Below are positions 564-57,110 of a DNA stretch of 64,000 bases, one piece after another. A program made the translations under genes and the position numbers. The notes under the pieces are model-generated. The model saw only the letters and a program-made list of their open reading frames with translations. It made no database searches and had not been told where the DNA came from. The first letter of the stretch is position 1, and the number at the start of each line of letters is the position of its first letter. The DNA comes from an uncultured Gemmatimonadales bacterium. GTDB taxonomy: Bacteria; Gemmatimonadota; Gemmatimonadetes; Gemmatimonadales; GWC2-71-9. Location: positions 448,001 to 512,000 of the forward strand of contig CAVZZO010000003.1 of the NCBI GenBank assembly GCA_963779755.1, in the 5' to 3' direction.

Positions 564-643
564 AGAGACAAGGGACAAGGGACAAGGGACCAGGGACAGG
601 GGACAAGGCCTTCCTGCCCCGTGTCCCCTGTCCCTGGTCCCCT
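564..643. repeat. Inverted pair of heptamer arrays (GGGACAA-type / TGTCCCY-type)
   Basis: gagacaa gggacaa gggacaa gggacca gggacag gggacaa ... tgtcccc tgtccct ggtcccc. Confidence 0.9.
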
Positions 644-673
644 CTTCCGCGCCACGCTTTCTCCCGGAACGCG

Positions 674-1135
674 CTACGCCGCCGTAGCCTCCCCCCGCTC
701 CGCCGCCGCATACAGGCCGCCCAGCGTCGCCCCGAAGGCAAGATTCACCAGCACGAAGGCGACGACGGGCAGCACGCCCCAGTTGATCAGGAACGGGCCG
801 GGACGCCCGAAGCCGGGCGGAAAGGCCGGAACCAGCCACAACAGCAGGCCCAGCACGAGCATCTGGGCCACTGCGTAGCGAGCTCCCAGCTTCCAGTCGC
901 CGTGGTGCGCCGCGTAGTGGAAGGTGGCGGCGTAGAGCCAGCCCAGGAATCCGCCCCCGATGACGAAGAGGCTGAGCCCCAGCGATCCGATCCCGCGGCT
1001 GGGCGGATGGAAGAAAAGGCTGCCGATGATGTAGGGAATGTCCACGTTGAGGCCGAACAGCCCGACCACCCAGATCACCCCGGCGGCAACCAGGCCCGCG
1101 ACAGCCCCCAGAAGAAACGAGCGGGTCCAATGCAT
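674..1135 (-). CDS. Hypothetical integral membrane protein (~4 TM helices)
   Basis: 153 aa ORF, AGGAG RBS upstream, four hydrophobic segments. Confidence 0.75.
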   Translation of the reverse strand: MHWTRSFLLGAVAGLVAAGVIWVVGLFGLNVDIPYIIGSLFFHPPSRGIGSLGLSLFVIGGGFLGWLYAATFHYAAHHGDWKLGARYAVAQMLVLGLLLWLVPAFPPGFGRPGPFLINWGVLPVVAFVLVNLAFGATLGGLYAAAERGEATAA

Positions 1136-1339
1136 GCGTGCGCTCCTGCTGACGTGTGGCTATTCCATACGCCGTTCGCCCCGGAAGGGGCTGTGATGTA
1201 GCATACAGGAGTCGCTCGTCGCTCGTCCGCAAACGTACCTGGTCGGCGAGGCTCCGCCACGACCCTGCTCATGACCGGAGCAGCCGGCGACGAGCGACGA
1301 GCGGCGCAACCCGTAACTCCCCGAACCCCTCGACCTCGC

Positions 1340-2569
1340 ATGCCCAGCCACCGTCTTGACTTTCCCGGCGCCTCGGGCGACCGGCTCGCCGCCCTGCTCG
1401 ATCTTCCCGCCGGTGCACCGCCGGTGGCCTGGGCGCTCTTCGCCCACTGTTTCACCTGCTCCAAGGATCTCAAGGCGGCGGTCTCTATCGCGCGCGAGCT
1501 CAACCGGCACCGTATCGCCGTGCTGCGATTCGACTTCACGGGGCTGGGCGAGAGCGAGGGCGACTTCGCCGGCACTTCTTTCAGCGCCAATGTCGCCGAC
1601 CTGGTCGCGGCGGCCGGCTTCATGGCCCGGGAGCACACCGCCCCCGCCATCCTGGTGGGCCACTCCCTGGGTGGCGCCGCCGTCCTGCATGCCGCGTCCT
1701 CCATCCCCTCGGCCCGGGCCGTGGCCACCATCGGGGCGCCGTTCGATCCCGCGCACGTGCGCACCTTGCTGGCCGGCACCGAGGATCTCATCCGGCGCGA
1801 GGGATCCGCGCTGGTACGGCTGGGAGGCCGCTCGGTGAGGATCGGGCGCGAATTTCTGGAGGACCTGGAGACCGGCAGGAGCGAAGCGGCCATAAGTACC
1901 CTGGGCTGTGCCCTGCTGGTGCTCCACTCTCCGGTCGACCGCATCGTGGGCATCGAGAACGCCGCCCGGATTTATCAGGCCGCGCGCCATCCCCGCAGCT
2001 TTATCGCGCTGGACGGGGCCGATCACCTGCTGAGCGATGAGGACGATGCCCGCTACGCGGCCGCCGTGCTGGCCGTATGGGCCGGGCGTTACGTGGAGAG
2101 CCCGCCGGAGGAAACGCTGGACCAGCTGCGCACCGGTTACCGGGTGACGGCGCGACTCGGCGGCGAGGGTCTGGCGACAGAGGTCATGGCGGGCGGCCAC
2201 GCCCTCACGGCGGACGAGCCGGTGGCGGTGGGCGGCAGCGACCAGGGGCCTTCGCCCTACGAGCTGGTGGCGGCGGCGCTGGGCGCCTGCACCGCCATGA
2301 CGCTGCGGCTCTACGCCGGCCGCAAGGGCTGGGACCTCCGGGAAGTCGAGGTGGGCCTGCACCACAGCCGGCTGCACGCCGAGGACGAGCGCGAGTGCGA
2401 GCACCGGCCGGCTCGAATGGACCGGCTCGACCGCCGGATCCGGCTGGAGGGGACCCTGACCCAGGACCAGCGCCGGCGCCTCCTGGAAATCGCCGACCGC
2501 TGCCCCGTGTACCGCACACTCGAAGCTGGCATCCAGGTAGTCACCGAGGAGGTGGCGCCGCCGGGATAG
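1340..2569 (+). CDS. Bifunctional alpha/beta hydrolase - OsmC family protein
   Basis: AHCFTC, FDFTGLGESEG, GHSLGG nucleophile elbow, ADHLL; C-terminal OsmC domain with LGACT...DRCPV; start taken at MPSHRLDF. Confidence 0.9.
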   Translation: MPSHRLDFPGASGDRLAALLDLPAGAPPVAWALFAHCFTCSKDLKAAVSIARELNRHRIAVLRFDFTGLGESEGDFAGTSFSANVADLVAAAGFMAREHTAPAILVGHSLGGAAVLHAASSIPSARAVATIGAPFDPAHVRTLLAGTEDLIRREGSALVRLGGRSVRIGREFLEDLETGRSEAAISTLGCALLVLHSPVDRIVGIENAARIYQAARHPRSFIALDGADHLLSDEDDARYAAAVLAVWAGRYVESPPEETLDQLRTGYRVTARLGGEGLATEVMAGGHALTADEPVAVGGSDQGPSPYELVAAALGACTAMTLRLYAGRKGWDLREVEVGLHHSRLHAEDERECEHRPARMDRLDRRIRLEGTLTQDQRRRLLEIADRCPVYRTLEAGIQVVTEEVAPPG

Positions 2570-2617
2570 CCCGCGTGCGAAACCGGCCGCGGGCTGGAGT
2601 GCAGCCAGACACTGAAG

Positions 2618-2646
2618 CCGGGAAGGGGCGCTCGCCCCCTCCCGGC
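2618..2646. terminator. GC-rich hairpin between convergent genes, possible bidirectional terminator
   Basis: gccgggaaggggcg-ctc-gcccctcccggc stem-loop; no U-tract. Confidence 0.45.
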
Positions 2647-2666
2647 CTCCTCCGCTTCCCTCCGGG

Positions 2667-3812: not shown

Positions 3813-3823
3813 GGCTGGGCCTC

Positions 3824-5724: not shown

Positions 5725-5753
5725 TTGCGCAAGTGCATGAGCGGCGCTAACTT
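5725..5753 (+). promoter_or_regulatory. Putative sigma70 promoter for tRNA-Ser/gltX
   Basis: TTGCGC-17nt-TAACTT ending 9 nt before the tRNA. Confidence 0.55.
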
Positions 5754-5762
5754 CTGCGCCCG

Positions 5763-5854
5763 GGAGTGGTGGCCGAGAGGCTGAAGGCGCCGGTTTGCTA
5801 AACCGTTATAGGGGTCTAAAGCTCCTATCGAGGGTTCGAATCCCTCCCACTCCG
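5763..5854 (+). tRNA. tRNA-Ser(GCT)
   Basis: Acceptor GGAGTGG/CCACTCC + G discriminator, anticodon loop TTGCTAA, long variable arm, GGTTCGAATCC; CCA not encoded. Confidence 0.95.
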
Positions 5855-5856
5855 TC

Positions 5857-5902
5857 GAGTCGCTAGTCGCTAATCGCAAGGTTTGCGAGTGACTGGCGAC
5901 TT
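5857..5902. repeat. Short inverted heptamer array (TAGTCGC family) directly after tRNA-Ser
   Basis: gagtcgc tagtcgc taatcgc ... gcgagtgactggcgact. Confidence 0.6.
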
Positions 5903-5940
5903 CGTCTGGGGCCATTGTCCATCGAGAAGCGACCAGCCTC

Positions 5941-7359
5941 ATGCCTCCCCCCCGCGTCCGATTTGCCCCCTCCCCTACCGGCTATCTCCATGTGGGCGGC
6001 GCCCGCACCGCACTGTTCAACTGGCTCTTTGCCCGGCATACCGGTGGAACGTTCGTGCTGCGGATCGAGGATACCGACCGGGAGCGCAGCACCGAGGCCC
6101 ATACCCAGGTCATCCTGGACGGGCTCTCCTGGCTGGGCGTCGGCTGGGACGAGGGGCCGTTCTTCCAGGGGAGCTACACCGCCCGGCATCGCGCCGATGC
6201 CGAACAGCTGCTGGCCCAGGGCAAGGCCTATCGCTGCTTCTGCACCCGGGAAGAGCTGGAGGCGCAGCGCGCCGCGGCGGGCCACGCACCCTTCCGCTAC
6301 GACCGCCGTTGCCTGCGGCTCGAGACCGCCCACGCCACCGAACGCATGGCGCGGGGCGACCCGTTCGTGATCCGCTTCCGCATGCCCGACGACGAACTGG
6401 CCTGGGACGATGCGGTCCACGGCCGGATCAGCTTCCAGGGCCGCGACCTGGACGACCTGGTCATCCTGCGCAGCGACGGGACCCCCATCTACAACCTGGC
6501 CGTGGTCTCCGACGATATCGCCATGGACATCACCCACGTGATCCGGGGCGACGACCACATCAGCAATACCCCCAAGCAGATCGCGCTCTACCGCGCCATG
6601 GGTCGGGAGCCGCCCGTCTTCGCGCACGTGCCCATGATCCTGGGGCCCGACGGGAAGAAGCTCTCCAAGCGCCACGGCGCCACGGCGGTGGGCGACTACC
6701 GCAACCAGGGCATCCTGCCCGCCGCCATGCGCAACTTCCTGGCCCTGCTGGGCTGGTCGCCGGGCGGCGACCGGGAGATCCTGCCCGAGGCGGAGATGAT
6801 CGCCCTCTTCTCCCTGGGGGGTATCCAGAGCAAGCCCGCCGTCTTCGATCTGGCCAAGCTGGAGTGGATGAACGGGCAGTATCTCTCGATGCTCCCCTCG
6901 GAAGACCTGGTGAATCCGGTCCGGGCCGAGCTGCGCCGGCGCGGAGTGCCGGAGCCCGGGCAGGACCGCCTGCTGGGTCTCATCACGGCGGTGAAGGCCC
7001 GCAGCCGTACCATCCTGGACATCGCGCGCCAGGTGGCGGTGCGGCTCGATTCCACACCCCCCGAGGTGGACGAGAAGGGACAGGCCCTGAAGGCAAAGAT
7101 GGGGCCGGAGTTCGCCGCCAACCTGCGGCTGGTGCACGACCGGCTGGCACCCCTGGCAGGCTCCTGGACCGCCGAAGAGATCCTGCAGGCCATCCGGCAA
7201 CTGGCCGGCGACGAGAACCGCAAGCTGGGAGACCTGATGCAGCCGGTGCGGGTGGCCATCACCGGCAGTACCGTCTCCGAGCCGGTGAACGAGCTGCTGG
7301 AGGCGGTGGGCCCGGAGGTCGCGCTGGGGAAGATGGCGACGGTGCTGGAAAGCGCCTGA
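5941..7359 (+). CDS. gltX: Glutamate--tRNA ligase
   Basis: RVRFAPSPTGYLHVGG (HIGH), LRIEDTD, IRGDDH, KLSKRHG. Confidence 0.97.
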   Translation: MPPPRVRFAPSPTGYLHVGGARTALFNWLFARHTGGTFVLRIEDTDRERSTEAHTQVILDGLSWLGVGWDEGPFFQGSYTARHRADAEQLLAQGKAYRCFCTREELEAQRAAAGHAPFRYDRRCLRLETAHATERMARGDPFVIRFRMPDDELAWDDAVHGRISFQGRDLDDLVILRSDGTPIYNLAVVSDDIAMDITHVIRGDDHISNTPKQIALYRAMGREPPVFAHVPMILGPDGKKLSKRHGATAVGDYRNQGILPAAMRNFLALLGWSPGGDREILPEAEMIALFSLGGIQSKPAVFDLAKLEWMNGQYLSMLPSEDLVNPVRAELRRRGVPEPGQDRLLGLITAVKARSRTILDIARQVAVRLDSTPPEVDEKGQALKAKMGPEFAANLRLVHDRLAPLAGSWTAEEILQAIRQLAGDENRKLGDLMQPVRVAITGSTVSEPVNELLEAVGPEVALGKMATVLESA

Positions 7360-7431
7360 AGAGTCGAAGGGGTCGAGATGGCTGAGGAGGTCGAGACGCA
7401 GATCTCGACCCCCTCGACCTTCTCGACCCTC
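7360..7431. repeat. Inverted pair of nonamer arrays (GGGGTCGAG / CTCGACCCC)
   Basis: gagtcgaag gggtcgaga tggctgagg aggtcgag ... ctcgacccc ctcgacctt ctcgaccct; starts at the gltX stop. Confidence 0.85.
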
Positions 7432-17328: not shown

Positions 17329-17410
17329 CGGGTGGAAGGTCAACGGTCGAAGGGAGCAACCTGGGGGCAAGGAGAAGGGCCCTGATCCCCGGTTCCTGAT
17401 TGCTGGTCCC
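17329..17410. repeat. Two degenerate heptamer arrays (GGTCGAA family and CCTGATT family)
   Basis: ggtggaa ggtcaac ggtcgaa ... cctgatc cccggtt cctgatt gctggtc; abuts the upstream gene's TAG. Confidence 0.6.
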
Positions 17411-20449: not shown

Positions 20450-20520
20450 GGTCGAAGGTCGAAGGTCGAAGGTCGAAGACCGCTCCCCCCCGATTCCCGA
20501 TTCCTGATTCCCGATTCCTG
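20450..20520. repeat. Adjacent heptamer arrays (GGTCGAA)x4 and (YGATTCC)x4
   Basis: ggtcgaa x4, spacer, cgattcc cgattcc tgattcc cgattcc. Confidence 0.9.
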
Positions 20521-24517: not shown

Positions 24518-24580
24518 CGGATTCCGCAGATTCTACAGATTCCTCTCGACCCTCTCGACCCCCTCGACCCCCTCGACCTA
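24518..24580. repeat. Nonamer arrays (GATTCYRCA-type and CTCGACCCY x4)
   Basis: gattccgca gattctaca gattcct ctcgaccct ctcgacccc ctcgacccc ctcgacc; overlaps rsmI TAG. Confidence 0.85.
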
Positions 24581-27875: not shown

Positions 27876-28607
27876 ATGAGCGCCATGCGATTCTACGTCA
27901 ACATTGATCATGTGGCCACGCTGCGGCAGGCGCGCCGGACCGACGAGCCCGATCCGCTCGCCGCCGCCGCGGCCGCCGAGGCGGGCGGCGCCGAGGGCAT
28001 CACGGCGCATCTGCGGGAGGATCGCCGCCATATCCAGGATGCCGATGTCCGCGCGCTCGCGAGCGCCGTCACCACTGTGCTGAACCTGGAACTCGCCACC
28101 AGCCCGGAGATCGTCCAGCTCGCCGCCGGGTTGCGCCCCTTCCAGGCCACGCTGGTCCCCGAGAGCCGGGAAGAGGTCACCACCGAAGGGGGACTCCGCC
28201 TCTCCGGCGACCAGGCGCGCCTGCGGGAGACCATCGCCCGGCTGAGCGGCGCGGGCATCCGCGTGAGCCTGTTCATTGACCCCGAACCCGGCGTCATCGA
28301 TCAGGCCGCCGCGCTGGGCGTGCCCGCCGTCGAGCTCCACACCGGCCGCTACGCCCACCACTGGCGCGCGGGCGACACGGCGCTCGACGAGCTGCGGCGC
28401 GCCGCCCGGCACGCCCGCGCGGCCGGCCTGGCCGTCCATGCGGGCCACGGCCTCACCTATCGCAACGTGCAGCCGGTCGCGCGAATTCCGGAGATCGAAG
28501 AGCTCAACATCGGCCACAGCGTCGTGAGCCGGGCGATCCTCGTGGGCATGGAGCGTGCGGTGGCGGAAATGAAGGCGCTGGTGGCGGGAGCGAGGGACAA
28601 GGGATAG
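27876..28607 (+). CDS. pdxJ: Pyridoxine 5'-phosphate synthase (start may be 27885)
   Basis: [40 protein letters not shown]. Confidence 0.97.
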
Positions 28608-28650
28608 GGGACAAGGGATCCCCGTCTCCGGTCCCCTGTCCCTTGTCCCG
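28586..28650. repeat. Inverted pair of heptamer arrays (GGGACAA family) overlapping pdxJ 3' end
   Basis: gggacaa gggatag gggacaa ggg ... ggtcccc tgtccct tgtcccg. Confidence 0.85.
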
Positions 28651-31515: not shown

Positions 31516-32409
31516 ATGGAGCGGGTACGCATCGCGGCGCACGCCAAGGTGAACCTGCTGCTCCGCATTCTGGCGCGTGAAGCGGACGGATACCACGGGC
31601 TGGAAACGGTCTTCTGCCTGCTCGACCTGGCCGATGAGCTGGTGGCGGAGACACGGGATGAGCCGGGCGTCATCCTGCGCAGCGAAGGGCCGGATCTGGG
31701 ACCGCCCGAGGAGAACCTTGCCGTGCGGGCCGCCCGCCTGGTTCTGCAAGCCACCGGCAGCCGTGCCGGGGTGGCGTTGACGCTCACCAAGCGGGTCCCG
31801 GTCCGGGCGGGGCTGGGCGGAGGCTCCAGCGATGCGGCCGCCGCCCTCCTGGCGGTGAACCGCCTGGCGGGCCATGCCGTGCCCCATCACGAACTGCTGC
31901 AGTTCGCCGCCCGGCTGGGGAGCGACACCGCCTTCTTCCTGAGCGCCGCGCCCCTGGCGCTGGCCTGGAACCGGGGCGAGCGTCTCCTGCGGCTGCCGCC
32001 GCTCCCGGCCGCGCCGGCCCTGGTGGTCGTCCCCCCGGTCGCCGTCTCCACGGCGGAGGCGTATCGCTGGGTAGACGAGGCCAGGCTGGCGGAGGGGCAC
32101 CGCGGGGCGCTGGCACTCGACCTGGACGACCTGACCTCCTGGGGCAGCATCGGCCGGATGGCGGGTAACACGTTCGAATCCGCCGTGTTCGGCCGGCACC
32201 CCGAGCTGCGCCAGGCCTACGAGGCCCTGGCCGCGACCCGGCCGCTGGTCTGCCGGTTGTCGGGCAGCGGCTCGTCGCTGTTTGCGGTCTATCGCTCCGA
32301 GGGCGACCGGGAGGAGGCGCGGATGATGCTGGGACGGAAGCATGGAGCCGTCCTCAGCGTCCGCACCATGTCCGGTCCGCCGGCCGGCCCGGAAGAGCGT
32401 GAGGCGTAA
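31516..32409 (+). CDS. ispE: 4-diphosphocytidyl-2-C-methyl-D-erythritol kinase
   Basis: AHAKVNLLL, DGYH, PVRAGLGGGSSDAA, LSGSGS. Confidence 0.96.
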   Translation: MERVRIAAHAKVNLLLRILAREADGYHGLETVFCLLDLADELVAETRDEPGVILRSEGPDLGPPEENLAVRAARLVLQATGSRAGVALTLTKRVPVRAGLGGGSSDAAAALLAVNRLAGHAVPHHELLQFAARLGSDTAFFLSAAPLALAWNRGERLLRLPPLPAAPALVVVPPVAVSTAEAYRWVDEARLAEGHRGALALDLDDLTSWGSIGRMAGNTFESAVFGRHPELRQAYEALAATRPLVCRLSGSGSSLFAVYRSEGDREEARMMLGRKHGAVLSVRTMSGPPAGPEEREA

Positions 32410-32492
32410 GGCGTGAGGCGGGAAGCGCAGGGGAAACGGGAAAGGGGAATCGGGAAAGGTCCTGTTCCCCTTTTCCCTTTTCCCGCTTCCCG
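32397..32492. repeat. Heptamer arrays: GGCGTRA family over the ispE stop, then GGGAAAS / TTTCCC inverted pair
   Basis: gcgtga ggcgtaa ggcgtga ggcggga; gggaaac gggaaag gggaatc gggaaag ... gttcccc ttttccct tttcccg cttcccg. Confidence 0.85.
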
Positions 32493-32517: not shown

Positions 32518-32588
32518 TGGCCCTTCGTCCAATGGCAGGACATCAGACTTTGGATCTGAGAATGGTGGTTCGAATCCACCAGGGCCAA
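32518..32588 (+). tRNA. tRNA-Gln(TTG)
   Basis: Acceptor TGGCCCT/AGGGCCA, anticodon arm TCAGA-CTTTGGA-TCTGA, GGTTCGAATCC; usual ispE-tRNA-Gln-prs context. Confidence 0.95.
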
Positions 32589-32589: not shown

Positions 32590-32670
32590 GAGGACGGCAG
32601 GGCATCGCTGGGGGCAATCTGGCCCCTCCTCAGCCTGCCGTCTTGCCGCCTTGCCGTCGTGCCGTCGTGC
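32590..32670. repeat. Octamer array (TGCCGTCK family) with short inverted partner
   Basis: gacggcag ... ctgccgtc ttgccgcc ttgccgtc gtgccgtc. Confidence 0.7.
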
Positions 32671-34936: not shown

Positions 34937-36985
<2,049 letters not shown>

Positions 36986-36988
<3 letters not shown>

Positions 36989-37037
36989 TCGTTAGCAGCC
37001 GTTGGTCGTTGGTCGTTAGTCATTGGTCGTTGGTCGT
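36986..37037. repeat. Heptamer array (TRGTCRT) x~7, left arm of four-helix-bundle cassette
   Basis: tagtcgt tagcagccgt tggtcgt tggtcgt tagtcat tggtcgt tggtcgt; begins at hppA TAG. Confidence 0.9.
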
Positions 37038-37435
37038 TCTTCCTTGCTCGGTCTTTCTTTGGCCTTGGGACTCGCTCTGCGACTTCGACTCACGTGTGAA
37101 ATGAGCCCGCTCAGCATGCGGGCAATCGCCTGCACATCAGCATCCAGAAGCCTCCAGTCTGATCCGGCGAGAAACCCCAGATCGTGTGCGATGATCAACT
37201 GGCATTCGATCTCCGTTGTGGACCCCCGGGCAATTCGTAAGAACCGCTGGAGATCTCCATCTGTGCCCCGCCCGCATCCTTCCGCGACGTTTGAGAGCAG
37301 CGAGATGGATGCGCGTCGCAGCTGGCTCGAGAGCCCAAACCGTTCGTCTTCAGGGAACCGGCTGGAGACTTGGTAGATCACCTTCACCAACCGGCGGCCC
37401 CGGCGCCAGACCTCCAACTCTTTGAAATTGGCCAT
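37016..37435 (-). CDS. Four helix bundle protein (23S rRNA IVS-protein / bAvd-like family)
   Basis: MANFKELEVW...FPEDERFGLSSQLRRASISLLSNVAEGCGR...FLRIARGS..E...QL. Confidence 0.92.
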   Translation of the reverse strand: MANFKELEVWRRGRRLVKVIYQVSSRFPEDERFGLSSQLRRASISLLSNVAEGCGRGTDGDLQRFLRIARGSTTEIECQLIIAHDLGFLAGSDWRLLDADVQAIARMLSGLISHVSRSRRASPKAKERPSKEERPTTND

Positions 37436-37502
37436 GTGATATGATACGGACGCTCTCGACTTGTCCCGTACCATTTTCACGCAATCATGACCATTTTCAC
37501 CC

Positions 37503-37582
37503 ACTAACGACTAACGACTAACGACTAACGACTAGCGACTAGCGACTAGCGACTCACGACTAGCGACTAGCGACCAGCGACC
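37503..37582. repeat. Heptamer array (ACTARCG) x11, right arm of four-helix-bundle cassette
   Basis: actaacg x4, actagcg x3, actcacg, actagcg x2, accagcg; reverse complement of the left-arm unit. Confidence 0.95.
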
Positions 37583-38702: not shown

Positions 38703-38710
38703 GGTTTGTT

Positions 38711-38789
38711 CCTCGACCCCCTTGACCCTCTCGACCATCTCGACCGCTCAAAGGGGTCGAGGGGGTCGAGAGGGTCGAGGAGGTCAAGG
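38711..38789. repeat. Inverted pair of nonamer arrays (CTCGACCCC / GGGGTCGAG)
   Basis: ctcgacccc cttgaccct ctcgaccat ctcgacc ... ggggtcgag ggggtcgag agggtcgag gaggtcaag. Confidence 0.9.
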
Positions 38790-39188
38790 AAGGCTCCGAT
38801 TCCCCTTCGAGCCCGCACCACCGACTCCGCCGCCCGAGCGCAGTTCCTGAAGCTGGCCGCCTGGCTGGTTCCGGCGGTGGGGTTCATGCTGGCGCTGGTG
38901 GCGTGGAAACTCTTCTCCAGCGGTACCATCGAGCCGGCCGTCTTCTTCATCTTCCTCCTGCTGGACGTCGCTAGTCAGAGGCCACCTCCCCAGAAGCAGG
39001 GTCGCGAGCCCGATGCCGAGACCTCCCGGAGCGCGCGTATGTGCCCAGGGAGAGGACTCGTACTGTCTCCGTGGCGCACTTCAGCGCGCGGAGGGAGGCT
39101 CGGCGAGGGCTCGCGAAAGACGACTGGAATTGTCGGCGGTTTGTATCGACCTCTTGCCCTCGCCCTCGGCGGGCGGGATACTCATCCC

Positions 39189-41498
39189 ATGCGCCGGCTC
39201 GCGTTGTTTCTCCTCGTGTTGGCGGGTTCGGTCACCGCTCCCCGCGACGCCGTTTCCCAGTCGCCGGAGGTCCGGGCCTCGCTCGAGCGGCTTTGGCGGG
39301 CGAGGCATGTTTCTTCCACCTCCCTGAGCCCCCTCAGGGATTCGCTCTTCCGTCCCTCGAGCAATGCCTCCAGGCTGGCGGGCCTCTTCCTGCACCAGCA
39401 CGCGGCCGCAGCGGACGGCAATGCGGATGCGCTCTTCTCCACCGAGCGCGACCTGGGACGCTTCGCCCAGGAGCATCGGGACTGGCCCTGGGCCTGGACC
39501 ATGCTGGCCGAGGCGCGAGTTCAGCTCACCCAAACGGCCCGGATCAGCAAGGCCGGCCCGTTGCAGCCCGAGGGCGCGACCTGGGCCGAGGGCGCCGCCG
39601 CCGCCGCGGACCGGGCTCTCGAGCTGGACTCGCTCTTCACCCCGGCGGCGGAGGTGTTGCTGCAGCTCCTGCATACACCCGGGTTCGCCGTGGACTCCAC
39701 CGCCGTCCTCTCCCTGGTCACCCGCATGACCGATGGCCCGGGGCAGGTTCCCTCGTCCCTGCTGATTGGACGCTTCGAACTGGAAGCCGCCAACGGCATC
39801 GGCCCGGCGGCAGAGAACACCTTCCGCCGGATCCAGTCCCAGCGGGGGGACAGTGCCTCCCGGGCGGCCGCCGCCGCCGCGGCGCTCGCCAACGCTCGGA
39901 AGAACCTGGTGGCCGACAGCCTCGAGCTGGCCGGAACCCTGCTGGCCGGCTATCTGGAGGCCGGCGGCGACACGGCAGTCTATGACTTCGAGGCCGCCGC
40001 CCTCTGCTTCGCCCGGGCGCTGGCCGATTCAGCGAGCCGGCTCTATTACCAGGGCGCAGGCCGCCTCGCCAGAGACAGTATGGCCCGCTCCCTGTACCGC
40101 AATGACATCCACCTGATTGGGGACTCGGCCGAGCTTGCAGCCTTCGATCTCCTCCCCCCCGATTCTCTGCGCGGCTGGCTGGAGTATTTCTGGAGCGCGC
40201 GCGACGCGCGCAGCGGCCATCCCATCGGCGCCCGGCTGGCGGAACACCGCCGGCGCGTGCTGTACGCCCGGCGCAACTATTCCCGGCCCGCCGGGGTGAA
40301 GGTTCGGAGCTGGCTCTGGAACACCCGGCCGGAGCAGCTGGAGCGAGAGACGCGTCCGGCCAGCCTGCCGGAGCAGGAAACCACGGCGGCATCGCTGCTG
40401 GACGCATTCACCCGGGTCGGGACCGCCGGGGAGCACCCGAGTGGCGTCTTCGATGACCGGGGCCTGACATATATCCGCCATGGCCCGCCCGATCGTACAG
40501 CCCGGTACGCGGGACTGGCATACCTCTACAGCGAATCCTGGCTGTATCGCCGGCCGGTCGCGCCGCTGGTGCTGCACTTCGTCACTCCGAGCCGGAATCC
40601 TCCCGATTTCCGGCTGGTGGAGTATCCGGCTGGTGACCTGATGGATGCCTGCCAGCTGGACGCCTGGTATTGCAGCCTGGCCGGCAAGCAGAGTATCGGG
40701 GCCATGACGGAACGGGACCAGTTCCGTCTGCGGGAACGGGAACAGGAGCGCATCCGGCGCGACACCACGACCGACGACTTTCCGCTCCCCCTGGCGAAGA
40801 ACCTCAAGGCCGCGTATCGGGTGTACCGGCTCCCGCCGGCGCGCGGCACGGGCACGCTGCTCCTCATCGCCGCCTCGGCCGATCCCAAGGTTCCGGATTC
40901 CCGCCCGATTCATCTGGCCTACCGGGTCTCGGCGGTGTATCCGGCAGTCCGGCACATCATTCAGCTGGATACCGCCCTCACCATCCCGCCGGGAAAGCAC
41001 CGGGCCAGCACCACCCTGCTGGCCTACCACTTCCCGGCGGGGCACGTGCAACTCACGGTGGCGGTGATAGACAGCGCCGCCGGCAGCTCGGCCCTGGGGG
41101 TGGAGGACAGTCTCGATCTACCCGACTTCTCCGGCTCGGCGCCGGTGCTGAGCGATCTGCTGGTCGGTCTCCCGGACAGCCGGGTCCGCTGGCAGGACGG
41201 CGGCGCAGCCTTCCCGCTCTCGCCGGGCCAGACCTTCCGGGAGGGCGCCACGGTGACGGTGGCCTATGCCGTCCGCGGCTTCAGCGGCGACGTGCGAACC
41301 ACCATCGAGATTCGCCGGGGCGACAAGGCACGAACCAGCGTGTCCTTCACCGAGCCGCTCGACCCGAAAGAGCTCCTGGTTCAGCGCCGCATCGGGCTCG
41401 GCAAGCTGGGCTGGGGGAATTACACGTTGCGGGTGACCCTGACGGAGCTGGCGACGGGACGGGAGCTGAGTCGGGAGACGGAGATTGTGGTGAAGTAG
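39189..41498 (+). CDS. Secreted GWxTD-domain-like protein
   Basis: Signal peptide MRRLALFLLVLA; FWSARD...EHRRRVLYA...DDRGLTYIRHGPPD...ESWLY; C-terminal LSDLLVG and GNYTLRVTLT beta domains. Confidence 0.75.
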   Translation: MRRLALFLLVLAGSVTAPRDAVSQSPEVRASLERLWRARHVSSTSLSPLRDSLFRPSSNASRLAGLFLHQHAAAADGNADALFSTERDLGRFAQEHRDWPWAWTMLAEARVQLTQTARISKAGPLQPEGATWAEGAAAAADRALELDSLFTPAAEVLLQLLHTPGFAVDSTAVLSLVTRMTDGPGQVPSSLLIGRFELEAANGIGPAAENTFRRIQSQRGDSASRAAAAAAALANARKNLVADSLELAGTLLAGYLEAGGDTAVYDFEAAALCFARALADSASRLYYQGAGRLARDSMARSLYRNDIHLIGDSAELAAFDLLPPDSLRGWLEYFWSARDARSGHPIGARLAEHRRRVLYARRNYSRPAGVKVRSWLWNTRPEQLERETRPASLPEQETTAASLLDAFTRVGTAGEHPSGVFDDRGLTYIRHGPPDRTARYAGLAYLYSESWLYRRPVAPLVLHFVTPSRNPPDFRLVEYPAGDLMDACQLDAWYCSLAGKQSIGAMTERDQFRLREREQERIRRDTTTDDFPLPLAKNLKAAYRVYRLPPARGTGTLLLIAASADPKVPDSRPIHLAYRVSAVYPAVRHIIQLDTALTIPPGKHRASTTLLAYHFPAGHVQLTVAVIDSAAGSSALGVEDSLDLPDFSGSAPVLSDLLVGLPDSRVRWQDGGAAFPLSPGQTFREGATVTVAYAVRGFSGDVRTTIEIRRGDKARTSVSFTEPLDPKELLVQRRIGLGKLGWGNYTLRVTLTELATGRELSRETEIVVK

Positions 41499-41504
41499 TC
41501 GCTA

Positions 41505-42642
41505 GTGTTGCGTCTCAGAAATCATGTTAACGTCGCAGGGCTTTCTTGATGATCTCTGCGGGCGTCTTCGTCCAGATGAAGGGCCGAGGATCGGCATTCC
41601 AAGGGGCCAGGTAATGCTCAATGTGTCGAACCAGTGCGCGGACGGAGCGGAACGAGGCGCGGCGCCCGGACTGGCGCGTCAGGACGCCGAACCACGCTTC
41701 GATGAGATTGAGCCAGGACGCGCCCGTCGGGGTGAAATGAAAGTGCACGCGCGGGTGGACGGCGAGCCAGGCTTTGATGGCCGGCGTCGAGTGCGTCGAC
41801 GAATTATCGAGGATCACATGCAAGGGCTGCCGGGGGTAGGTCCGCGCCAGCTGCTTGAGGAAGCGGAGGAAGTCCGCGGCCGTGTGGCGCGGGGAGCACG
41901 TGCCGGGAACGCGACCCGAGCCGACTTCGAGCGCGGCGTAGAGGCTGGTGAGGCCATGGCGGCGATAGTCGTGAGTCTGGCGGGCCGGCAGGTGCGGGCG
42001 CAGCGGCAAGAGCGGCTGCGTCCGCTCGAGCGCCTGGATCTGCGTCTTCTCATCCACACTCAGCACGACGGCATTGGTGGGCGGGGCGAGATAGAGTCCG
42101 ACCACGTCCTGGATCTTGGCTTCGGCGGCCGGGTCGGTCGTGAACTTGAACGTCTCCTGGCGATGGGGCTGGAGCGCGTGGCCGCGCCAGAGGCGTTGCA
42201 CGGTGCTCGGGGAGACGCCCACTCGCTTGGCCAATTCCCGGGTACTCCATTGGGAGAGCCCCGGGGGCGGCGCCTGGAGGGTGAGCGCCAAGATCCGGGC
42301 CCGTTTGGCCTCGCTCACCGTTGCGGGGCGGCCGGCGCGGGGGCGCTCGCCCAAGCCCAGCACCCCTTCGGCGGCGTAGCGGGCGCGCACGCGACTGATC
42401 TGGACCGGGGTATAGCCGGTGCGCTCGGCGATGGTGGTCCCCGGCAAGCCCTCGGCCATCAGCAACACCGCCCGGGCGCGGCGACTCAGCCCCGCCGGCG
42501 TGGTCGACGCCCGCACCAATCCTTCCAGCAGTTCACGATCGTCGGCGGTCACGGCGATAGGGCGCGAGTGATTGGCCATGCGGTTCCTCCCGGGCGCATT
42601 CCCGAGAGGCAATATATTATCATGACTTCTGACGCGCTACAC
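41505..42642 (-). mobile_element. IS630-family insertion sequence, 1138 bp, TA target duplication
   Basis: Ends TAGTGTTGCGTCTCAGAAATCATG vs (revcomp) TAGTGTAGCGCGTCAGAAGTCATG, 20/24 match including TA; both ends in CTAG context. Confidence 0.92.
41527..42579 (-). CDS. IS630-family transposase
   Basis: N-terminal HTH (RRARAVLL, WSTRELA); DDE triad VDEK / ILDNSSTH / SWLNLIE; GGAGG RBS; uninterrupted frame. Confidence 0.95.
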   Translation of the reverse strand: MANHSRPIAVTADDRELLEGLVRASTTPAGLSRRARAVLLMAEGLPGTTIAERTGYTPVQISRVRARYAAEGVLGLGERPRAGRPATVSEAKRARILALTLQAPPPGLSQWSTRELAKRVGVSPSTVQRLWRGHALQPHRQETFKFTTDPAAEAKIQDVVGLYLAPPTNAVVLSVDEKTQIQALERTQPLLPLRPHLPARQTHDYRRHGLTSLYAALEVGSGRVPGTCSPRHTAADFLRFLKQLARTYPRQPLHVILDNSSTHSTPAIKAWLAVHPRVHFHFTPTGASWLNLIEAWFGVLTRQSGRRASFRSVRALVRHIEHYLAPWNADPRPFIWTKTPAEIIKKALRR

Positions 42643-42722
42643 TAGTTGCTAGTCGGAAGCTAGCTCGGCGCGAGGGCCGGGTGTGCGCAGGCACAACCGC
42701 ACCGGAGGGTGGCGTGTGGTAT

Positions 42723-42791
42723 GACTAATGACTAATGACTAATGACTAATGACTAATGACTAATGACTAATGACTAGCGACTAGCGACCAC
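42723..42791. repeat. Heptamer array (GACTAAT)x7 + (GACTAGC)x2
   Basis: Seven perfect units 42723-42771; overlaps 3' end of the DUF4112 gene. Confidence 0.95.
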
Positions 42792-45097: not shown

Positions 45098-45128
45098 CCT
45101 GACTCCCGATTCCTGCTCCCTGATTCCT
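45098..45128. repeat. Heptamer array (CCTGATT family) abutting a TAG stop
   Basis: cctgact cccgatt cctgctc cctgatt cc. Confidence 0.7.
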
Positions 45129-45730: not shown

Positions 45731-45797
45731 AATCCTGACTCCTCACTCCTCCTCCCTTGTCCCTTGTCCCTCGTCCCTCGTCCCTTGTCCCTTGCCC
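45731..45797. repeat. Heptamer arrays upstream of rpsF: short CCTGACT-type, then (CCCTYGT)x6
   Basis: aatcctg actcctc actcctc; cccttgt cccttgt ccctcgt ccctcgt cccttgt cccttgc. Confidence 0.9.
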
Positions 45798-45813
45798 CCC
45801 TTGGGTTTACCTT
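45785..45813 (+). promoter_or_regulatory. Putative sigma70 promoter for rpsF operon; -35 lies inside the repeat array
   Basis: TTGTCC-17nt-TACCTT. Confidence 0.5.
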
Positions 45814-51510: not shown

Positions 51511-51524
51511 AAGGAACTGCGGTT

Positions 51525-51683
51525 CACCGCGAAGGCGCGAAGAACGCAAAGTTCGCGGAGAAAATGGTGGAACGTCGAGCCTCAGTTGAAGAGCATGCGA
51601 GTCCCGGCTGATCGTTTTCGTTAACCAGTCCCCGTCGCGGAGTCCTCTTGGGCTGTCTTGGCCGATTTCGCGTCTTCGCGGTA
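51525..51683. repeat. Nonamer-type inverted arms enclosing ~105 bp
   Basis: accgcgaag gcgcgaag aacgcaaag ... cttggccga tttcgcgtc ttcgcggt. Confidence 0.65.
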
Positions 51684-54700: not shown

Positions 54701-55177
54701 GGCACCGCCCGGACCATGTTCCAGGACACCTTCGAGGCCATCAAGGGGCACTTCACTACCGTCTTCCAGACCCTCTTCGGCGGCGGCGAGTGCGACCTGC
54801 GGCTCACCACCCCGGACGACCCGCTCGAAAGCGAAATCGAGATTCATGCTGCCCCGCGCGGCAAGCGGACCCAGCGGATCCACCTGCTCTCCTCCGGCGA
54901 GCGCACCCTGGTAGCGGTGAGCCTGCTCTTCAGTATCTACCTTACCAAGCCCAGCCCCTTCTGCCTCATGGACGAGGTGGACGCCCCCCTGGACGACGCC
55001 AACGTCGGCCGCTTCACCCGGCTGCTGGACGAGTTCAAGGGCCAGACCCAGTTCATCGTCATCACCCACAATCCCCGGACCATGCAGGCCGCCGACGCGG
55101 TCTACGGGGTGACGATGCAGGAGCCGGGGGTCTCGACCATCGTGGGGGTGCGCCTGGGGGAAACGGCGGAGGTCTAG
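51707..55177 (+). CDS. smc: Chromosome segregation protein SMC
   Basis: GFKSFAD, GPNGCGKSN, FEEAAG, long coiled coils, LSSGE, DEVDAPLD, FIVITH. Confidence 0.96.
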   Translation: MKLTRLELSGFKSFADTVTLNFDEGVTAIVGPNGCGKSNVSDAVRWVLGEQSARLLRGGKMEDVIFQGAATRRPVNVTEVSLYLDNSDGDLPIAYREVVITRRLSRSGQSDYLLNKAPTRLRDIQDLIRGTGLGSDAGVVIEAKMIDLLLSDRAEERRSLFEEAAGIGLYRDRKQSTERRLEETGQDLQRVEDLISEVQSQLRSLARQRGRAERHGKLTEEKFAVQLTLARRLLEELEARLVSIRARRGELDHELPRARETLAEAEQRRERCVRERGGYETRRTEITRRLGGVRVELGKLDGDLALAAERLTNAASRRVRAAEERGQMEQRSQLAAREHAAALEERQAAMAEHERIHAELEGRSAAEEFVRQRLSEQRAAVRALEEELQRHVRTLRSLEGERSALESDLASLRERSTQLEGRRESLANALEEGERRLQEAGESAERQAGEVKRAAGDADRCRHLVGEYRRQEAHDRATVREVEELVAQLTARRQALEDLERDRVGLAPGAAALLAARDHFGGAVLGVLSDYLTTERTDAELAERLLGEWVHAVLLRDEDAIPAIQAWHAEAQPGALVLLPVRPGPSFTPEGDPLADRLRADEPAREWVRALLGGSRVLEAGGRALRRANGAILLAGAAAPSGPLRRRAELQSLSQELEQGRQRQDAAEHALRETAASLESAEHSLVQATAALEESRTAERRSLAARDDAARTAENLRREHQEADSQLAGLGERIERSEVRLAEIDTAMTEGELGRVRLEENLGESRGQLAEFEREQESARENRVHWQVQEAHVAARVQAADERLERARASGHEAETHARELAGELARLEADSGDLESQQAVWQEQRAELRVAVLELEAAAGDAEQELAAAEDALRRAEEDLTTGRQRLEALSEERHRLDLELTEADARNRSIVERVETEWRRPIDALLQEAPVLDLDRETLESEAARIVGALEAIGPINPLAVEEHAEESKRLEFLTSQRDDLVAGRQSLQQAIREIDGTARTMFQDTFEAIKGHFTTVFQTLFGGGECDLRLTTPDDPLESEIEIHAAPRGKRTQRIHLLSSGERTLVAVSLLFSIYLTKPSPFCLMDEVDAPLDDANVGRFTRLLDEFKGQTQFIVITHNPRTMQAADAVYGVTMQEPGVSTIVGVRLGETAEV

Positions 55178-55268
55178 GGACGGAGGAATCAGGAATCAGG
55201 AATGAAGGGCTCCACCCCCCGGGTGGCGGGGAGGGGCCTCCATTCCCGATTCCTGGTTCCTGATTCCT
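55178..55268. repeat. Inverted pair of heptamer arrays (GGAATCA / TTCCYGR) around an inner hairpin
   Basis: ggaatca ggaatca ggaatga ... attcccg attcctg gttcctg attcctt; follows smc TAG. Confidence 0.88.
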
Positions 55269-55339
55269 TGCTCTACCGCCCCACCCCTCCTCCCCCCTAT
55301 CCTTCCGGGGTCGAATTCCGCCTTTGGAGAACCCCGCGC

Positions 55340-56380
55340 ATGCTCGTGGTGATGCGGCAGGACGCCGGGCCGGAGGATATCCGCGCCGTGGTGCAGGCCA
55401 TAGAGGAGATGGGCTACCAGGCCCGGCCCATGCCGGGCCGGTCGCGTACGGCCGTGGGGGTGGTGGGCAACGAGGGCCGGGTGGACGAGTCACGCCTCAG
55501 CGCGCTGGCCGGCGTCCGGGAGTTGGTGCACATCACCAGGCCCTGGAAGCAGGTGTCCCGCGAGTGGAAGGCCGAACCCACCGTCGTGACCCTGCCGGGC
55601 GGGCTCACCATCGGAGGCGACGGCCTGGTCGTCATGGCCGGCCCCTGTTCGGTCGAGAGCGAAGCCCAGATCCTCGAGGCGGCCCATGCCGTGCGCGAGG
55701 CCGGCGCCACGATCCTGCGGGCCGGCGCCTACAAACCGCGCAGTTCCCCCTATGCCTTCCAGGGGCTGGGCCAGCCCGGCCTGGCCATGCTGGCGCGGGC
55801 CCGGGAGGAAACCGGGCTGCTCATCGTCACCGAGGCCATGGATCCGGCGGCGGTGGATCTGGTCGAGCCGGTCGCCGATATCATCCAGGTGGGCGCCCGC
55901 AACATGCAGAACTATTCCCTGCTCAAGCGGGTGGGCCGGAGCCGCAAGCCGGTGCTGCTGAAGCGCGGCGTTTCCGCCACCATTCAGGAGTTGCTGCTCT
56001 CGGCGGAGTACATCCTGGCCGAAGGCAATCCCGACGTCATCCTCTGCGAGCGCGGCATCCGCGGGTTCGATGCCATGCTGCGCAACTTCTTCGACCTGTC
56101 GGCCATCCCGTTGGTACACGCTCTGTCACACCTGCCCATCATCGCCGACCCCAGCCATGGCACCGGCCAGCGCGACATGGTCGTTCCCGTCGCGCGGGCG
56201 GCCGTGGCCGCCGGCGCCGACGGCCTGCTGGTTGAAGTGCATCCCCATCCCGAGCGCGCCCGTTCCGACGGAGCCCAGAGCCTCTATCCCGAGCAGTTCG
56301 AGCGGATGATGCGGGAGTGCCGCCAGATCGCCGACGCCATCGGGCGGCGAATCAGCGAGCCCGCGGAGGCGGGCGCGTGA
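55340..56380 (+). CDS. aroF: 3-deoxy-7-phosphoheptulonate synthase, type I-beta with N-terminal regulatory domain
   Basis: AGPCSVES, KPRSSPY.FQGLG, GARNMQN, LLKRG, CERGIR, DPSH, SDG.QS. Confidence 0.95.
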   Translation: MLVVMRQDAGPEDIRAVVQAIEEMGYQARPMPGRSRTAVGVVGNEGRVDESRLSALAGVRELVHITRPWKQVSREWKAEPTVVTLPGGLTIGGDGLVVMAGPCSVESEAQILEAAHAVREAGATILRAGAYKPRSSPYAFQGLGQPGLAMLARAREETGLLIVTEAMDPAAVDLVEPVADIIQVGARNMQNYSLLKRVGRSRKPVLLKRGVSATIQELLLSAEYILAEGNPDVILCERGIRGFDAMLRNFFDLSAIPLVHALSHLPIIADPSHGTGQRDMVVPVARAAVAAGADGLLVEVHPHPERARSDGAQSLYPEQFERMMRECRQIADAIGRRISEPAEAGA

Positions 56381-57045
56381 AGCGGTTCGCGGTCCTGCTG
56401 GCCATCCTGGTCCTGCTGCGCCCCGCCCCGGCCCGGGCCCAGCGCACCGACAGCCTGCTCGCCCGGGCCGCCCGAACCTACGCCGGGCTCCAGTCGTTCA
56501 GCGCCGATTTTCACCAGCTGATCACCGATCCCATGCTGGGCGACATGAAAAGCGCGGGGCACCTGGCTCAGCAGGGCCCGTCCCATTTCGCCATGCGCTT
56601 CACCGATCCGCCCCACGAGGCCATCGTTGTGGACGGAACGCACGCCTGGGTCTATACCCCCAGCACCACTCCGGGCCAGGTGCTGCGCTTCCCCGCCCCG
56701 GCGGGCGAGCAGTATGGTTTCAATCTGCTGGCCTGGCTGCTGGACCGGCCGCTGGAGCGCTACCAGGCGCACGGGGCCGGCAGCGCGATGCTCAACGGCC
56801 AGACCGCCGATGGTGTGCGGCTCATTCCCACCGACCCCGCCCTCCCCTTCGACAGCGCCACCGTCTGGCTCGGCCACCGCAGCGCGCTGCCGCAGAAGGT
56901 GGAAATCTACGGGCAGGGGCAGCGGGGTCTGTCGGGGACAGGCGTGCGCACGGTCACGCTGGACCAGATCCGCACCAATGAGCGCCTGCCGGCAAAGATG
57001 TTCCGGTTTACCGTCCCGGATGGAGTGCGGGTGGTGGATCAGTAG
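56377..57045 (+). CDS. lolA: Outer membrane lipoprotein carrier protein
   Basis: Signal peptide; FSADFHQ, IVVDG..WVYTP, FRFTVPDGVRVVDQ. Confidence 0.85.
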   Translation: MKRFAVLLAILVLLRPAPARAQRTDSLLARAARTYAGLQSFSADFHQLITDPMLGDMKSAGHLAQQGPSHFAMRFTDPPHEAIVVDGTHAWVYTPSTTPGQVLRFPAPAGEQYGFNLLAWLLDRPLERYQAHGAGSAMLNGQTADGVRLIPTDPALPFDSATVWLGHRSALPQKVEIYGQGQRGLSGTGVRTVTLDQIRTNERLPAKMFRFTVPDGVRVVDQ

Positions 57046-57110
57046 GTAAGGGGTGAGACGTAAGGCGGGCGGCGTGGGAACACCTCACCCCTGGCCTCTT
57101 ACGCCTTACC
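57043..57110. repeat. Inverted heptamer arrays (GGCGTAA family) between convergent stops
   Basis: taggtaa ggggtga gacgtaa ggcg ... cctcacc cc ... cttacgc cttaccc. Confidence 0.65.

Follow-up and report, generated by a model that had tools for sequence, protein, structure and literature searches.

A 64,000-nucleotide stretch of the genome of an uncultured Gemmatimonadales bacterium (assembly GCA_963779755.1, the genome under study, here G000; contig C3, positions 448001-512000), hereafter the window, carries arrays of short tandem repeats in the spacers between its genes, often as one arm of an inverted pair. Genome-wide analysis revealed that such arrays, with units of 7, 8 and 9 nt, are genuine and occur far beyond chance, and that adjacent 7- and 8-mer arrays share a strict strand polarity. 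On balance, we lean towards interpreting them as a lineage-specific bloom of long simple sequence repeats (SSRs) of the type found in Xanthomonas and Nostoc, with slippage-like arms and few founders spread by copying at the DNA level. This 4.2-Mb genome has about 640 non-coding arrays filling its spacers, and most relatives have almost none, which argues that something switches on repeat growth in particular lineages.

Abundance and intergenic position of the arrays

Arrays were detected with Tandem Repeats Finder (TRF) at a score of at least 30 in the window and at least 40 genome-wide. The assembly, of 4.23 Mb and 68-70% G+C, consists of 4 contigs measuring 2.37 Mb, 1.82 Mb, 33 kb and 15 kb. 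As the chance baseline, the two large contigs were simulated with a third-order Markov model. At a score of at least 40, 354 arrays of period 7 were found against 2 in the simulation, 189 against 5 for period 8 and 250 against 12 for period 9; the neighboring periods 6 and 10 gave 22 against 2 and 41 against 21. The enrichment at 7 and 9 expected in a preliminary description of the window, made from the DNA letters without database searches, was thus borne out, in the order 7, 9, 8 by array count, with period 8 enriched too. Perfect runs of at least 3 copies numbered 188, 86 and 28 for periods 7, 8 and 9 against 0 simulated in each case, and 13 against 16 simulated for period 5. The difference lies in growth and not in seeding. 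Perfect period-7 runs of 2-2.5 copies are near chance (635 versus 531 simulated), and two-copy perfect seeds are 5-7 times fewer for period 7 (635) than for period 5 (4730) or period 6 (3200). The seeds that grew to at least 3 copies nevertheless number 188 for period 7, 20 for period 6 and 13 for period 5. The copy-number distribution of perfect periodic runs is heavy-tailed, and the longest array has about 26 copies (26.1 listed for an 8-mer). An assembly artefact is an unlikely source, since no array is longer than about 210 bp and like arrays are present in four other assemblies and in published complete genomes (PMC4692102).

The intergenic placement noted earlier for the window holds genome-wide: 315/354 arrays of period 7, 142/189 of period 8 and 180/250 of period 9 lie outside a crude core-coding mask (71% of the genome). 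Period 12, by contrast, is mostly coding, with 49/205 arrays outside the mask. Arrays per spacer amount to 0.27 in convergent, 0.205 in tandem and 0.186 in divergent spacers.

Strand polarity and abutment on gene ends

Adjacent arrays of all periods (gap of at most 80 nt) form 146 pairs that begin with the G-rich arm and 24 that begin with the C-rich one. For 7- and 8-mer pairs the counts are 132 versus 3. Split by period, the G-first to C-first ratio is 92:1 for 7-7 pairs, 25:1 for 7-8 and 8-7 pairs, 15:1 for 8-8 pairs and 9:18 for 9-9 pairs; the CTCGACCCY/GGGGTCGAG 9-mers, from now on referred to as TCGAG 9-mers, favor the C arm first. The G-first rule also holds in non-complementary or different-period pairs (47 versus 8). 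It is equally strict in divergent (18:0), convergent (22:1) and tandem (76:2) spacers, so that neither transcription direction nor stop codons cause the polarity. Stop codons on the G strand were considered as a cause and rejected: of 522 arrays of 7- and 8-mers scoring at least 40, just 152 have a stop on the G strand and 85 on the C strand, and the polarity holds in divergent spacers.

Single arrays lean the same way, being G-rich in sense near 3' ends (73 versus 33) and C-rich in sense near 5' ends (71 versus 35). The first G-rich array begins a median of 2.5 nt past the stop codon (n=176), with 66 overlapping the gene end, and C-rich arrays begin a median of 47 nt from the stop (n=155). 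An array lies within 60 nt of the 3' end of 16/58 tRNA genes, including both tRNAs of the window, and in 11 of the 16 cases the array is G-rich in tRNA sense.

A connected repertoire of units

Canonical unit types number 63, 32 and 61 for periods 7, 8 and 9, covering 315, 168 and 134 arrays, and a few heptamer types are each found at about 30-70 loci. GGGAATC/GGAATCR is among the commonest units. The 101 oriented 7- and 8-mer types are joined by 212 one-step links, compared with 111 +/- 8 in composition-matched nulls, and 94 of them fall into one component. Three repeat classes can be told apart: the 7/8-mers, the TCGAG 9-mers of reverse polarity and the ATCTGYG-type 9-mers found with GxxExxY genes. 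The preliminary description had treated them as one family, which they are not. All units named there are present. A GGG tract is found in just 68/236 arrays of the 17 commonest heptamer types, so a quadruplex reading leaves most arrays uncovered.

Array borders are sharp, with an identity to the unit of 0.95 within the array and of about 0.28 immediately beyond either border; given this equal sharpness, the idea that one end of an array holds older units was rejected. Arrays of the same unit (22-72 loci each) have unrelated flanks, with 0.0-0.5 bit per position in most columns and 1.0 bit in the highest, and unrelated loops too. The fixed terminal inverted repeats, conserved interior and target-site duplication of miniature inverted-repeat transposable elements were looked for and not found in these arrays, flanks and loops being unrelated and borders without repeats. 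Three GGTGAGC arrays do have common flanks and differ in length (15.1, 13.1 and 11.1 copies). Local spread of unit types was considered as a main feature and rejected, since same-unit clustering within 50 kb mostly vanished after a flank filter: once 146 arrays with flanks duplicated elsewhere were removed, the clustering left was weak (z 3.1 for 5-20 kb and -1.2 for 0.7-5 kb).

Inverted pairing and arm anatomy

An inverted partner, defined as an ungapped score of at least 12 within 150 nt with the unreversed complement as control, was found for 305/793 arrays versus 43/793 in the control. By period, 162/354 (7), 34/189 (8, barely above its control of 19) and 109/250 (9) arrays are partnered. 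Of 146 adjacent G-then-C pairs, 99 are complementary, far above independent draws. A set of 135 complementary pairs showed a median loop of 16 nt and a median arm of 31 nt, without correlation between the lengths of the two arms (r -0.11). Paired arms are often separately homogenised, for example (GGTCAAA)4 opposite (CCTTCGA)15. A mirrored order of units between the two arms, suggested by the hairpin at 564, was rejected as a general feature (31/77 pairs above the permutation mean, Wilcoxon p 0.77). Mismatches compatible with G.U pairing are equally frequent on both strands (108 sense versus 116 antisense), giving no sign of selection at the RNA level, and the U tract of intrinsic terminators, scored as TTTT within 12 nt, is present at just 5/270 hairpin sides.

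Within the window, 15 sites were folded as single-strand DNA and compared with 200 shuffles. Folding is clear at seven of them (548, 5855, 7360, 28590, 32395, 38708 and 55178; z at most -3.6, 0-1/200 shuffles as good), marginal at two (32589, z -1.7; 57040, z -2.0) and not above shuffles at six (17325, 20445, 24518, 45095, 45728 and 42645). Two long-range inverted pairs were also found: 36997-37038 with 37506-37547 (42 nt, 81% complementary, 467 nt apart) and 51526-51541 with 51667-51682 (16 nt, 94% complementary, 125 nt apart). A tandem arm with a complementary arm had been proposed as the architecture common to all arrays. The genome-wide excess of partners supports it for a part of them; with clear folds at 7/15 window sites, it is not general.

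Arrays and neighboring genes in the window

The gene content of the window is ordinary housekeeping, including gltX, an ABC transporter, pdxJ, prs, an H+-pyrophosphatase (H+-PPase), ychF, rpsF, rplI, smc, DAHP synthase and prfA among others. The H+-PPase is closest to those of Gemmatimonadaceae and Gemmatimonadales metagenome-assembled genomes, at 70-75% identity among the named genomes searched. An Rfam search of the window returned two tRNAs and nothing else. The repeat features, in window positions, are as follows.

551..643, hairpin with the G arm first: (GGGACAA)n G arm 551-608, (CCTGTCC)n C arm 613-643; TRF, fold z -3.59, 1/200 shuffles as good
5858..5905, hairpin: (AGTCGCT)2.9 and its complement, beginning 3 nt past tRNA-Ser (5763-5854); TRF, fold z -5.53
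7362..7429, hairpin: GGGGTCGAG-type G arm and (CTCGACCCC)2.9 C arm (TRF at 7404), directly after the gltX-like stop at 7359; fold z -4.58
17329..17402, degenerate GGTCGAA-like then CCTGATY-like copies, non-complementary; no TRF array, no fold, z +0.74
20450..20518, (GGTCGAA)4.1 then (CCCGATT)4.3, unrelated units in G-then-C order, filling an 83-nt intra-operon spacer; TRF, no fold, z +1.98
24518..24578, pair of ATCTGYG-type 9-mers followed by (CTCGACCCC)3.8 as a single arm; TRF at 24545, fold z -0.5
28593..28649, hairpin: GGGACAA-type G arm and C arm; TRF, fold z -5.20
32397..32484, (GCGTGAG)3.4, then hairpin (GGGAAAC)3.9 / (CCCTTTT)2.4; TRF, fold z -4.29
32591..32670, marginal hairpin: GACGGCAG-type remnant 3 nt past tRNA-Gln (32518-32588) and (TGCCGTCT)4.4; fold z -1.67, 8/200 shuffles as good
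36997..37581, gene-in-hairpin cassette: (CGTTGGT)5.6 arm, minus-strand PF05635 gene, (CGACTAR)11.3 arm; TRF and inverted-pair search
37016..37504, minus strand, cassette cargo, longest open frame; PF05635 (23S_rRNA_IVP) match at about 37106-37423, Pfam E 1e-32
38712..38789, (CTCGACCCT)3.8 then (GGGGTCGAG)4.1, strongest hairpin of the window, reversed polarity (C arm first); fold z -8.60
41494..42788, single hairpin with its left arm (TAGTYGS)3 split by an insertion sequence (41494-41505 and 42642-42655), right arm (ATGACTA)8(GCGACTA)2 at 42721-42788; TRF, inverted pairs
41506..42641, minus strand, IS630-like element (DDE_3 transposase), 29-nt terminal inverted repeats (83%), CTAG on both sides; Pfam and inverted-repeat search
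45098..45128, single C-rich arm of CCTGAYT-type units; TRF, no fold
45733..45798, upstream of rpsF, (TCCTCAC)3.4 and (TCCCTTG)6.6, each a single C-rich arm; TRF, no fold
51526..51682, degenerate units of CGCGAAG type, with an inverted match of 16 nt at a distance of 125 nt; no TRF array, pair 94%
55184..55268, hairpin (AGGAATC)2.9, loop with its own GC stem, (ATTCCTG)3.9, beginning 7 nt past the SMC stop; fold z -4.91
57043..57110, imperfect hairpin of GGTRAGR / CGTAAGG-like units; no TRF array, fold z -1.99, 13/200 shuffles as good

A short-period array is present at or beside every one of the roughly 17 coordinates given in the preliminary description. TRF placed arrays at 564, 5857, 7360 (C arm at 7404), 20450/20489, 24545, 28593/28619, 32397/32431/32468, 32636, 37000, 37503, 38712/38753, 42721, 45098, 45733/45753 and 55184/55242. 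At four of the coordinates (17329, 41496, 51525 and 57043) no TRF array scored at least 30; these sites hold 2-3 degenerate copies each, and 41496 is the arm cut by the insertion sequence. The loop of the GGAATCA hairpin (55204-55241) has a GC-rich stem of its own and other loops show similar inner stems, around which, as older small hairpins, the repeat arms may have grown.

Several arrays touch reading frames. The C-terminus of the H+-PPase (36960-36990) reads ...WFARMAL*, its TAG stop lying within the first repeat unit, and that of relatives reads ...WFIG* or ...WFIA*; the final codons appear to have been reshaped by the array. For a 930-aa open frame at 38706-41498, Pfam gave no match; this frame is over-extended, reading across both the 9-mer hairpin and a dispersed element, and a signal-peptide-like start (MRRLALFLLVLAG...) lies near 39213. 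Arrays thus distort gene calls by supplying stop codons and over-extending open frames, and they can break short-read assemblies.

Cargo genes, an insertion sequence and dispersed elements

The cassette at 36997-37581 lies between the H+-PPase and YchF genes, outside rRNA. G000 has 9 PF05635 matches, 4 with complementary arrays on both sides and 2 more with an array on one side, and in five cassettes with recognisable arms the G-rich arm is on the left whichever strand the gene is on. GxxExxY genes (PF13366) give 12 matches, mostly in one region of C3 and flanked by 9-mers such as ATCTGCG, CCGATTACA and CCATCGGCG. That region, C3:1489000-1506500, holds 9 of the 12 matches, several of them truncated, interleaved with 9-mer arrays of CCGATTACA, CCATCGGCG and GGTGAAGCG. 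Inverted partners enclose 80 loops of 40-1500 nt; 6 of these, all known before, contain a cargo homolog, and no cargo remnant was detected in the other 74 by tblastn (E at most 0.01). PF05635 genes and the GxxExxY nucleases, which have 9-mers of their own, are small selfish genes inside some pairs and do not appear to make the arrays.

The arrays at 41496 and 42723 do not enclose cargo by design. They are an ordinary hairpin whose left arm, made of TAGTCGY heptamers, is split by the IS630-like element, inserted at a CTAG; units that contain CTAG may serve as ready-made IS630 targets. A palindromic dispersed element of about 110-125 nt lies at 39003-39127 and has about 25 copies or fragments in G000, among them C1:804327-804979, C1:1532003-1532276, C3:1349080-1349333, C3:740715-741088, C3:1025171-1026104 and others; the window copy matches no Rfam family. 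At several loci this element alternates with 7/8-mer arrays. The motif CTGTCATTGCGAG recurs after a number of unrelated arrays in G000 and the flank AAGGACTTCCTCGCGGC...GGCCGCTCGGTC recurs before some GACGGCAG arrays; the two resemble additional dispersed elements.

Distribution of arrays and candidate mobilisers among relatives

From each of 26 other Gemmatimonadota genomes, 20-60 kb were sampled; the 20 nearest genomes examined include none of the same genus. Counting 7- and 8-mers together, arrays per 100 kb amount to 12.8 in G000, 11.7 in G014, 10.0 in G038, 6.7 in G013 and 5.0 in G015, compared with 0-2.5 in the other 22 sampled genomes. Units differ between the array-rich genomes, each of which has its own.

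The preliminary description had named four-helix-bundle, GxxExxY, RAYT (REP-associated tyrosine transposase) and reverse transcriptase genes as candidate mobilisers, and none of them tracks the arrays well. PF05635, the four-helix-bundle family, is found in 57/81 sampled genomes (a tally that takes in the unpublished G066, as does the one for PF13366), and its count correlates weakly with array density (Spearman 0.38, p 0.047, over 28 genomes that are kin and not independent, hence overstated; 0.32, p 0.10, without G000). PF05635-rich genomes are array-poor: those with 13, 13, 10 and 8 copies have 0, 1.7, 1.7 and 1.7 arrays per 100 kb (7- plus 8-mers). The PF13366 count gives a Spearman coefficient of 0.29 (p 0.13), and PF13366 was not found in array-rich G014. 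Y1/RAYT transposases gave no match in G014, G013 and G015, three of the four array-rich relatives, and the 3 Y1 genes of G000 have no array within 400 nt. The reverse transcriptase domain RVT_1 gave 0 matches in G000 (97% complete) and in five relatives, four of them array-rich, a search that did not extend to other polymerase families. This removes four plausible culprits, namely reverse transcriptase, RAYT, GxxExxY and, for the most part, the four-helix-bundle genes.

The orthologous PPase-YchF spacer holds the PF05635 cassette in G000, a simple (GGGAAGS)4 hairpin in G008 and 33-39 bp with no repeat in G006 and G002. In G013 it holds a PF05635 gene only 31% identical to that of G000, whose heptamer arms are different ones, along with CTGCAG and a duplicated arm. 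In G015, where ychF has another upstream neighbor, a PF05635 gene with heptamer-like inverted arms is found as well. At the G013 locus (C2, L020, 9872-10461) an extra arm copy and a CTGCAGTT junction lie on the far side of the PF05635 gene, and a direct repeat of about 40 nt surrounds the G arm and gene; this direct repeat hints at insertion by recombination, not transposition.

Origin of the arrays

In the account that we favor, a Xanthomonas/Nostoc-type SSR bloom, the arrays are heptamer-dominated and intergenic, their G-rich strand points outward, 5' to 3', from the closest gene, and they often meet head-on in twos, giving an inverted pair able to fold as a hairpin or cruciform. Each arm would grow, shrink and homogenise alone by replication slippage, and new unit types would arise by a point change or a one-base indel that then sweeps through the arm. 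The 7/8-mer arrays would stem from few founders, with a process acting on DNA having copied them to new spacers without their flanks, and arrays may extend until coding sequence halts their spread. Most would be tolerated filler and not selected RNA signals.

Several points weigh against this account. The complementary partners (99/146) call for a cause of pairing that it does not supply. The evidence for few-founder descent of the 7/8-mers is the unit network and the polarity, and shared sequence constraints could give both. The best metagenome relative has 81% YchF identity, and slippage is hence inferred, not seen between near-identical genomes. The samples from relatives are small (20-60 kb each) and some assemblies are fragmented, so that repeats may be lost. 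Gene calls were made genome-wide by a crude rule based on third-codon-position G+C, by which stops are exact for real genes and starts are unreliable. Finally, a 3'-end function would likewise be compatible with the abutment on stop codons and tRNA ends.

Four other explanations were each weakened by specific tests. One is plain replication slippage at chance direct repeats, independent in each spacer and without common origin. In its favor, the copy-number distribution is heavy-tailed, the arms vary independently, and heptamers lead among the long SSRs of many bacteria, for which a polymerase footprint was proposed (Mrazek et al. 2007, as summarised in PMC4679880 and PMC4692102). We nevertheless regard it as very unlikely. 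Abundant seeds of periods 5 and 6 do not grow, 63 canonical heptamer types cover 315 arrays with a few types at 30-70 loci each, complementary partners are far above chance, and most relatives of similar G+C are without arrays. The confinement of growth to periods 7-9, the single mutational network (212 versus 111 links, denser than composition-matched nulls) and the shared polarity of adjacent 7/8-mer pairs (132:3) together make slippage from random seeds alone a misfit, in line with the poor fit already suspected for the window. Slippage is still needed within each arm. A dedicated enzyme that adds templated repeats to DNA ends at breaks, much as telomerase does, would turn a spacer into two G-strand extensions joined head to head. 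The G-rich strand does run 5' to 3' toward the center on both sides, which is the polarity of fused telomeres, pairs of unrelated units keep that polarity (47 versus 8), and the sharp borders, the unrelated flanks and the growth of certain periods alone speak for it as well. More than 100 unit types would, however, require as many templates, arms contain mixed and separately homogenised variants, the TCGAG 9-mers are opposite in polarity and RVT_1 has no match in G000 or five relatives, which makes templated addition the most improbable of the explanations considered here.

Two further explanations were considered. Hairpins could be the ends and gene-less leftovers of a selfish cassette, built on PF05635 or, for one 9-mer class, on a GxxExxY nuclease, akin to rRNA intervening sequences that bear an ORF (open reading frame), with the cassette or a host partner spreading the arms. 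The arms on both sides of 4/9 PF05635 matches and on one side of 2 more, the G-rich arm on the left in five recognisable cassettes on any gene strand, and the 9-mer arrays flanking GxxExxY genes fit this idea. So do the PF05635 genes with inverted heptamer-like arms just upstream of YchF in G000, G013 and G015, the presence of PF05635 in all 5 array-bearing genomes, and the 0-2.5 arrays per 100 kb in 10 sampled genomes without it. We still consider it unlikely, given that genomes with 13, 13, 10 and 8 copies are nearly array-free (0-1.7 per 100 kb), that the Spearman coefficient is just 0.38 (0.32 without G000), that 74 of 80 loops have no cargo remnant, that about 540 7/8-mer arrays face 9 PF05635 genes, and that the same-spacer genes of G000 and G013 are 31% identical. 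Alternatively, the arrays may be selected 3'-end elements, acting as RNA hairpins that end or stabilise transcripts or as RNase III sites, as do enterobacterial REP/BIME elements. G arms begin at stop codons and tRNA 3' ends, arrays per spacer are highest in convergent spacers (0.27), 7/15 window sites fold strongly, and unrelated repeat hairpins occupy the PPase-YchF spacer of G000, G013 and G008. A selected 3'-end role is rather improbable all the same: TTTT is found at 5/270 hairpin sides, G.U mismatches show no sense excess (108 versus 116), a partner is present for under half of the arrays, 22/26 sampled relatives manage without arrays, and the polarity is 18:0 in divergent spacers, where no 3' ends exist.

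A bolder form of the favored bloom would treat the 7/8-mers as one diversifying, flank-less and strand-polar lineage, copied by an undescribed directional DNA transaction shared by Xanthomonas, Nostoc and Gemmatimonadota. Strand-switch synthesis or G-strand extension at breaks would be candidates for such a transaction, with the 132:3 polarity as its footprint. We put this forward as a speculative possibility with little likelihood at present.

Comparison with known repeats

Repetitive extragenic palindromes (REP), bacterial interspersed mosaic elements (BIME) and REP doublets forming hairpins (REPIN) have a fixed palindromic sequence, are not tandem, go with RAYT transposases, and are intergenic, numerous and gene-less. 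The G000 arrays resemble them in being intergenic, hairpin-forming, very numerous and gene-less. They differ in that copies share the short unit alone, with neither a conserved palindrome nor a flanked Y1 gene. PF05635 (23S_rRNA_IVP) proteins are encoded in 23S rRNA intervening sequences that bear an ORF. The cassette at 36997-37581 is like these, being a PF05635 gene between long inverted arms, and unlike them in that it lies between protein genes and its arms are tandem heptamers; it is known here from DNA alone.

A full-text literature search for such repeats in Gemmatimonadota gave nothing relevant, and the closest parallels come from other phyla. The TAACTGA repeat of marine Beggiatoaceae is, as described in PMC4679880, one AT-rich unit occurring almost exclusively as direct repeats upstream of start codons, with 1 inverted set of 170. 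Going by that description, the G000 arrays are similarly intergenic with a fixed orientation near gene boundaries, and differ in having many G-rich units, often as inverted pairs. Three different tandem heptanucleotides of the short tandemly repeated repetitive (STRR) type are reported from the single genome of Calothrix PCC 7601 (PMC4692102), and G000 likewise has several tandem heptamer units in one genome; hosts of STRR sequences, which are filamentous cyanobacteria, differ from it in phylum and G+C. The long SSRs of Mrazek et al. 2007, as related in PMC4679880 and PMC4692102, have units of 5-11 nt with heptamers commonest, and slippage together with a polymerase footprint was proposed for them. 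On the evidence of these accounts, G000 shares with them a sporadic lineage-specific excess, a lead of heptamers and a position outside genes for periods that are not multiples of three; its polarity, inverted pairing and unit networks are not described for long SSRs in the two summaries.

The strongest resemblance is to the heptamers of Xanthomonas (GGGAATC) and Nostoc-Anabaena (GGGGAYT), which PMC4692102 presents as dispersed arrays of 2-26 units not tied to mobile elements. According to that account, X. campestris has 186 GGGAATC-type arrays, about 90% of them intergenic, with 70 convergent pairs, and Anabaena has few paired repeats forming inverted repeats. The G-rich repeat of Xanthomonas lies 0-50 bp from the stop on the coding strand, overlaps included, and upstream on the non-coding strand, so that the G-rich strand adjoins the 5'-neighboring ORF in any orientation; the same distance rule is given for Anabaena (PMC4692102). 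G000 agrees with these heptamers (Rehm et al. 2015) in copy range, intergenic position, adjacency to the 5' ORF with stop overlap, convergent pairs, and the unit GGGAATC itself, which ranks among its most frequent. It departs from them in that most arrays lack the four or more GGG tracts of a quadruplex, and in its more than 100 oriented 7/8-mer types, abundant 8-mers, reversed-polarity 9-mer class and different phylum. The polarity and abutment seen in G000 are thus a rule already known (PMC4692102), now found in a third phylum, and the G-arm-first rule, the limit to periods 7-9 and the connected unit network offer handles on what makes and spreads bacterial heptamer repeats.

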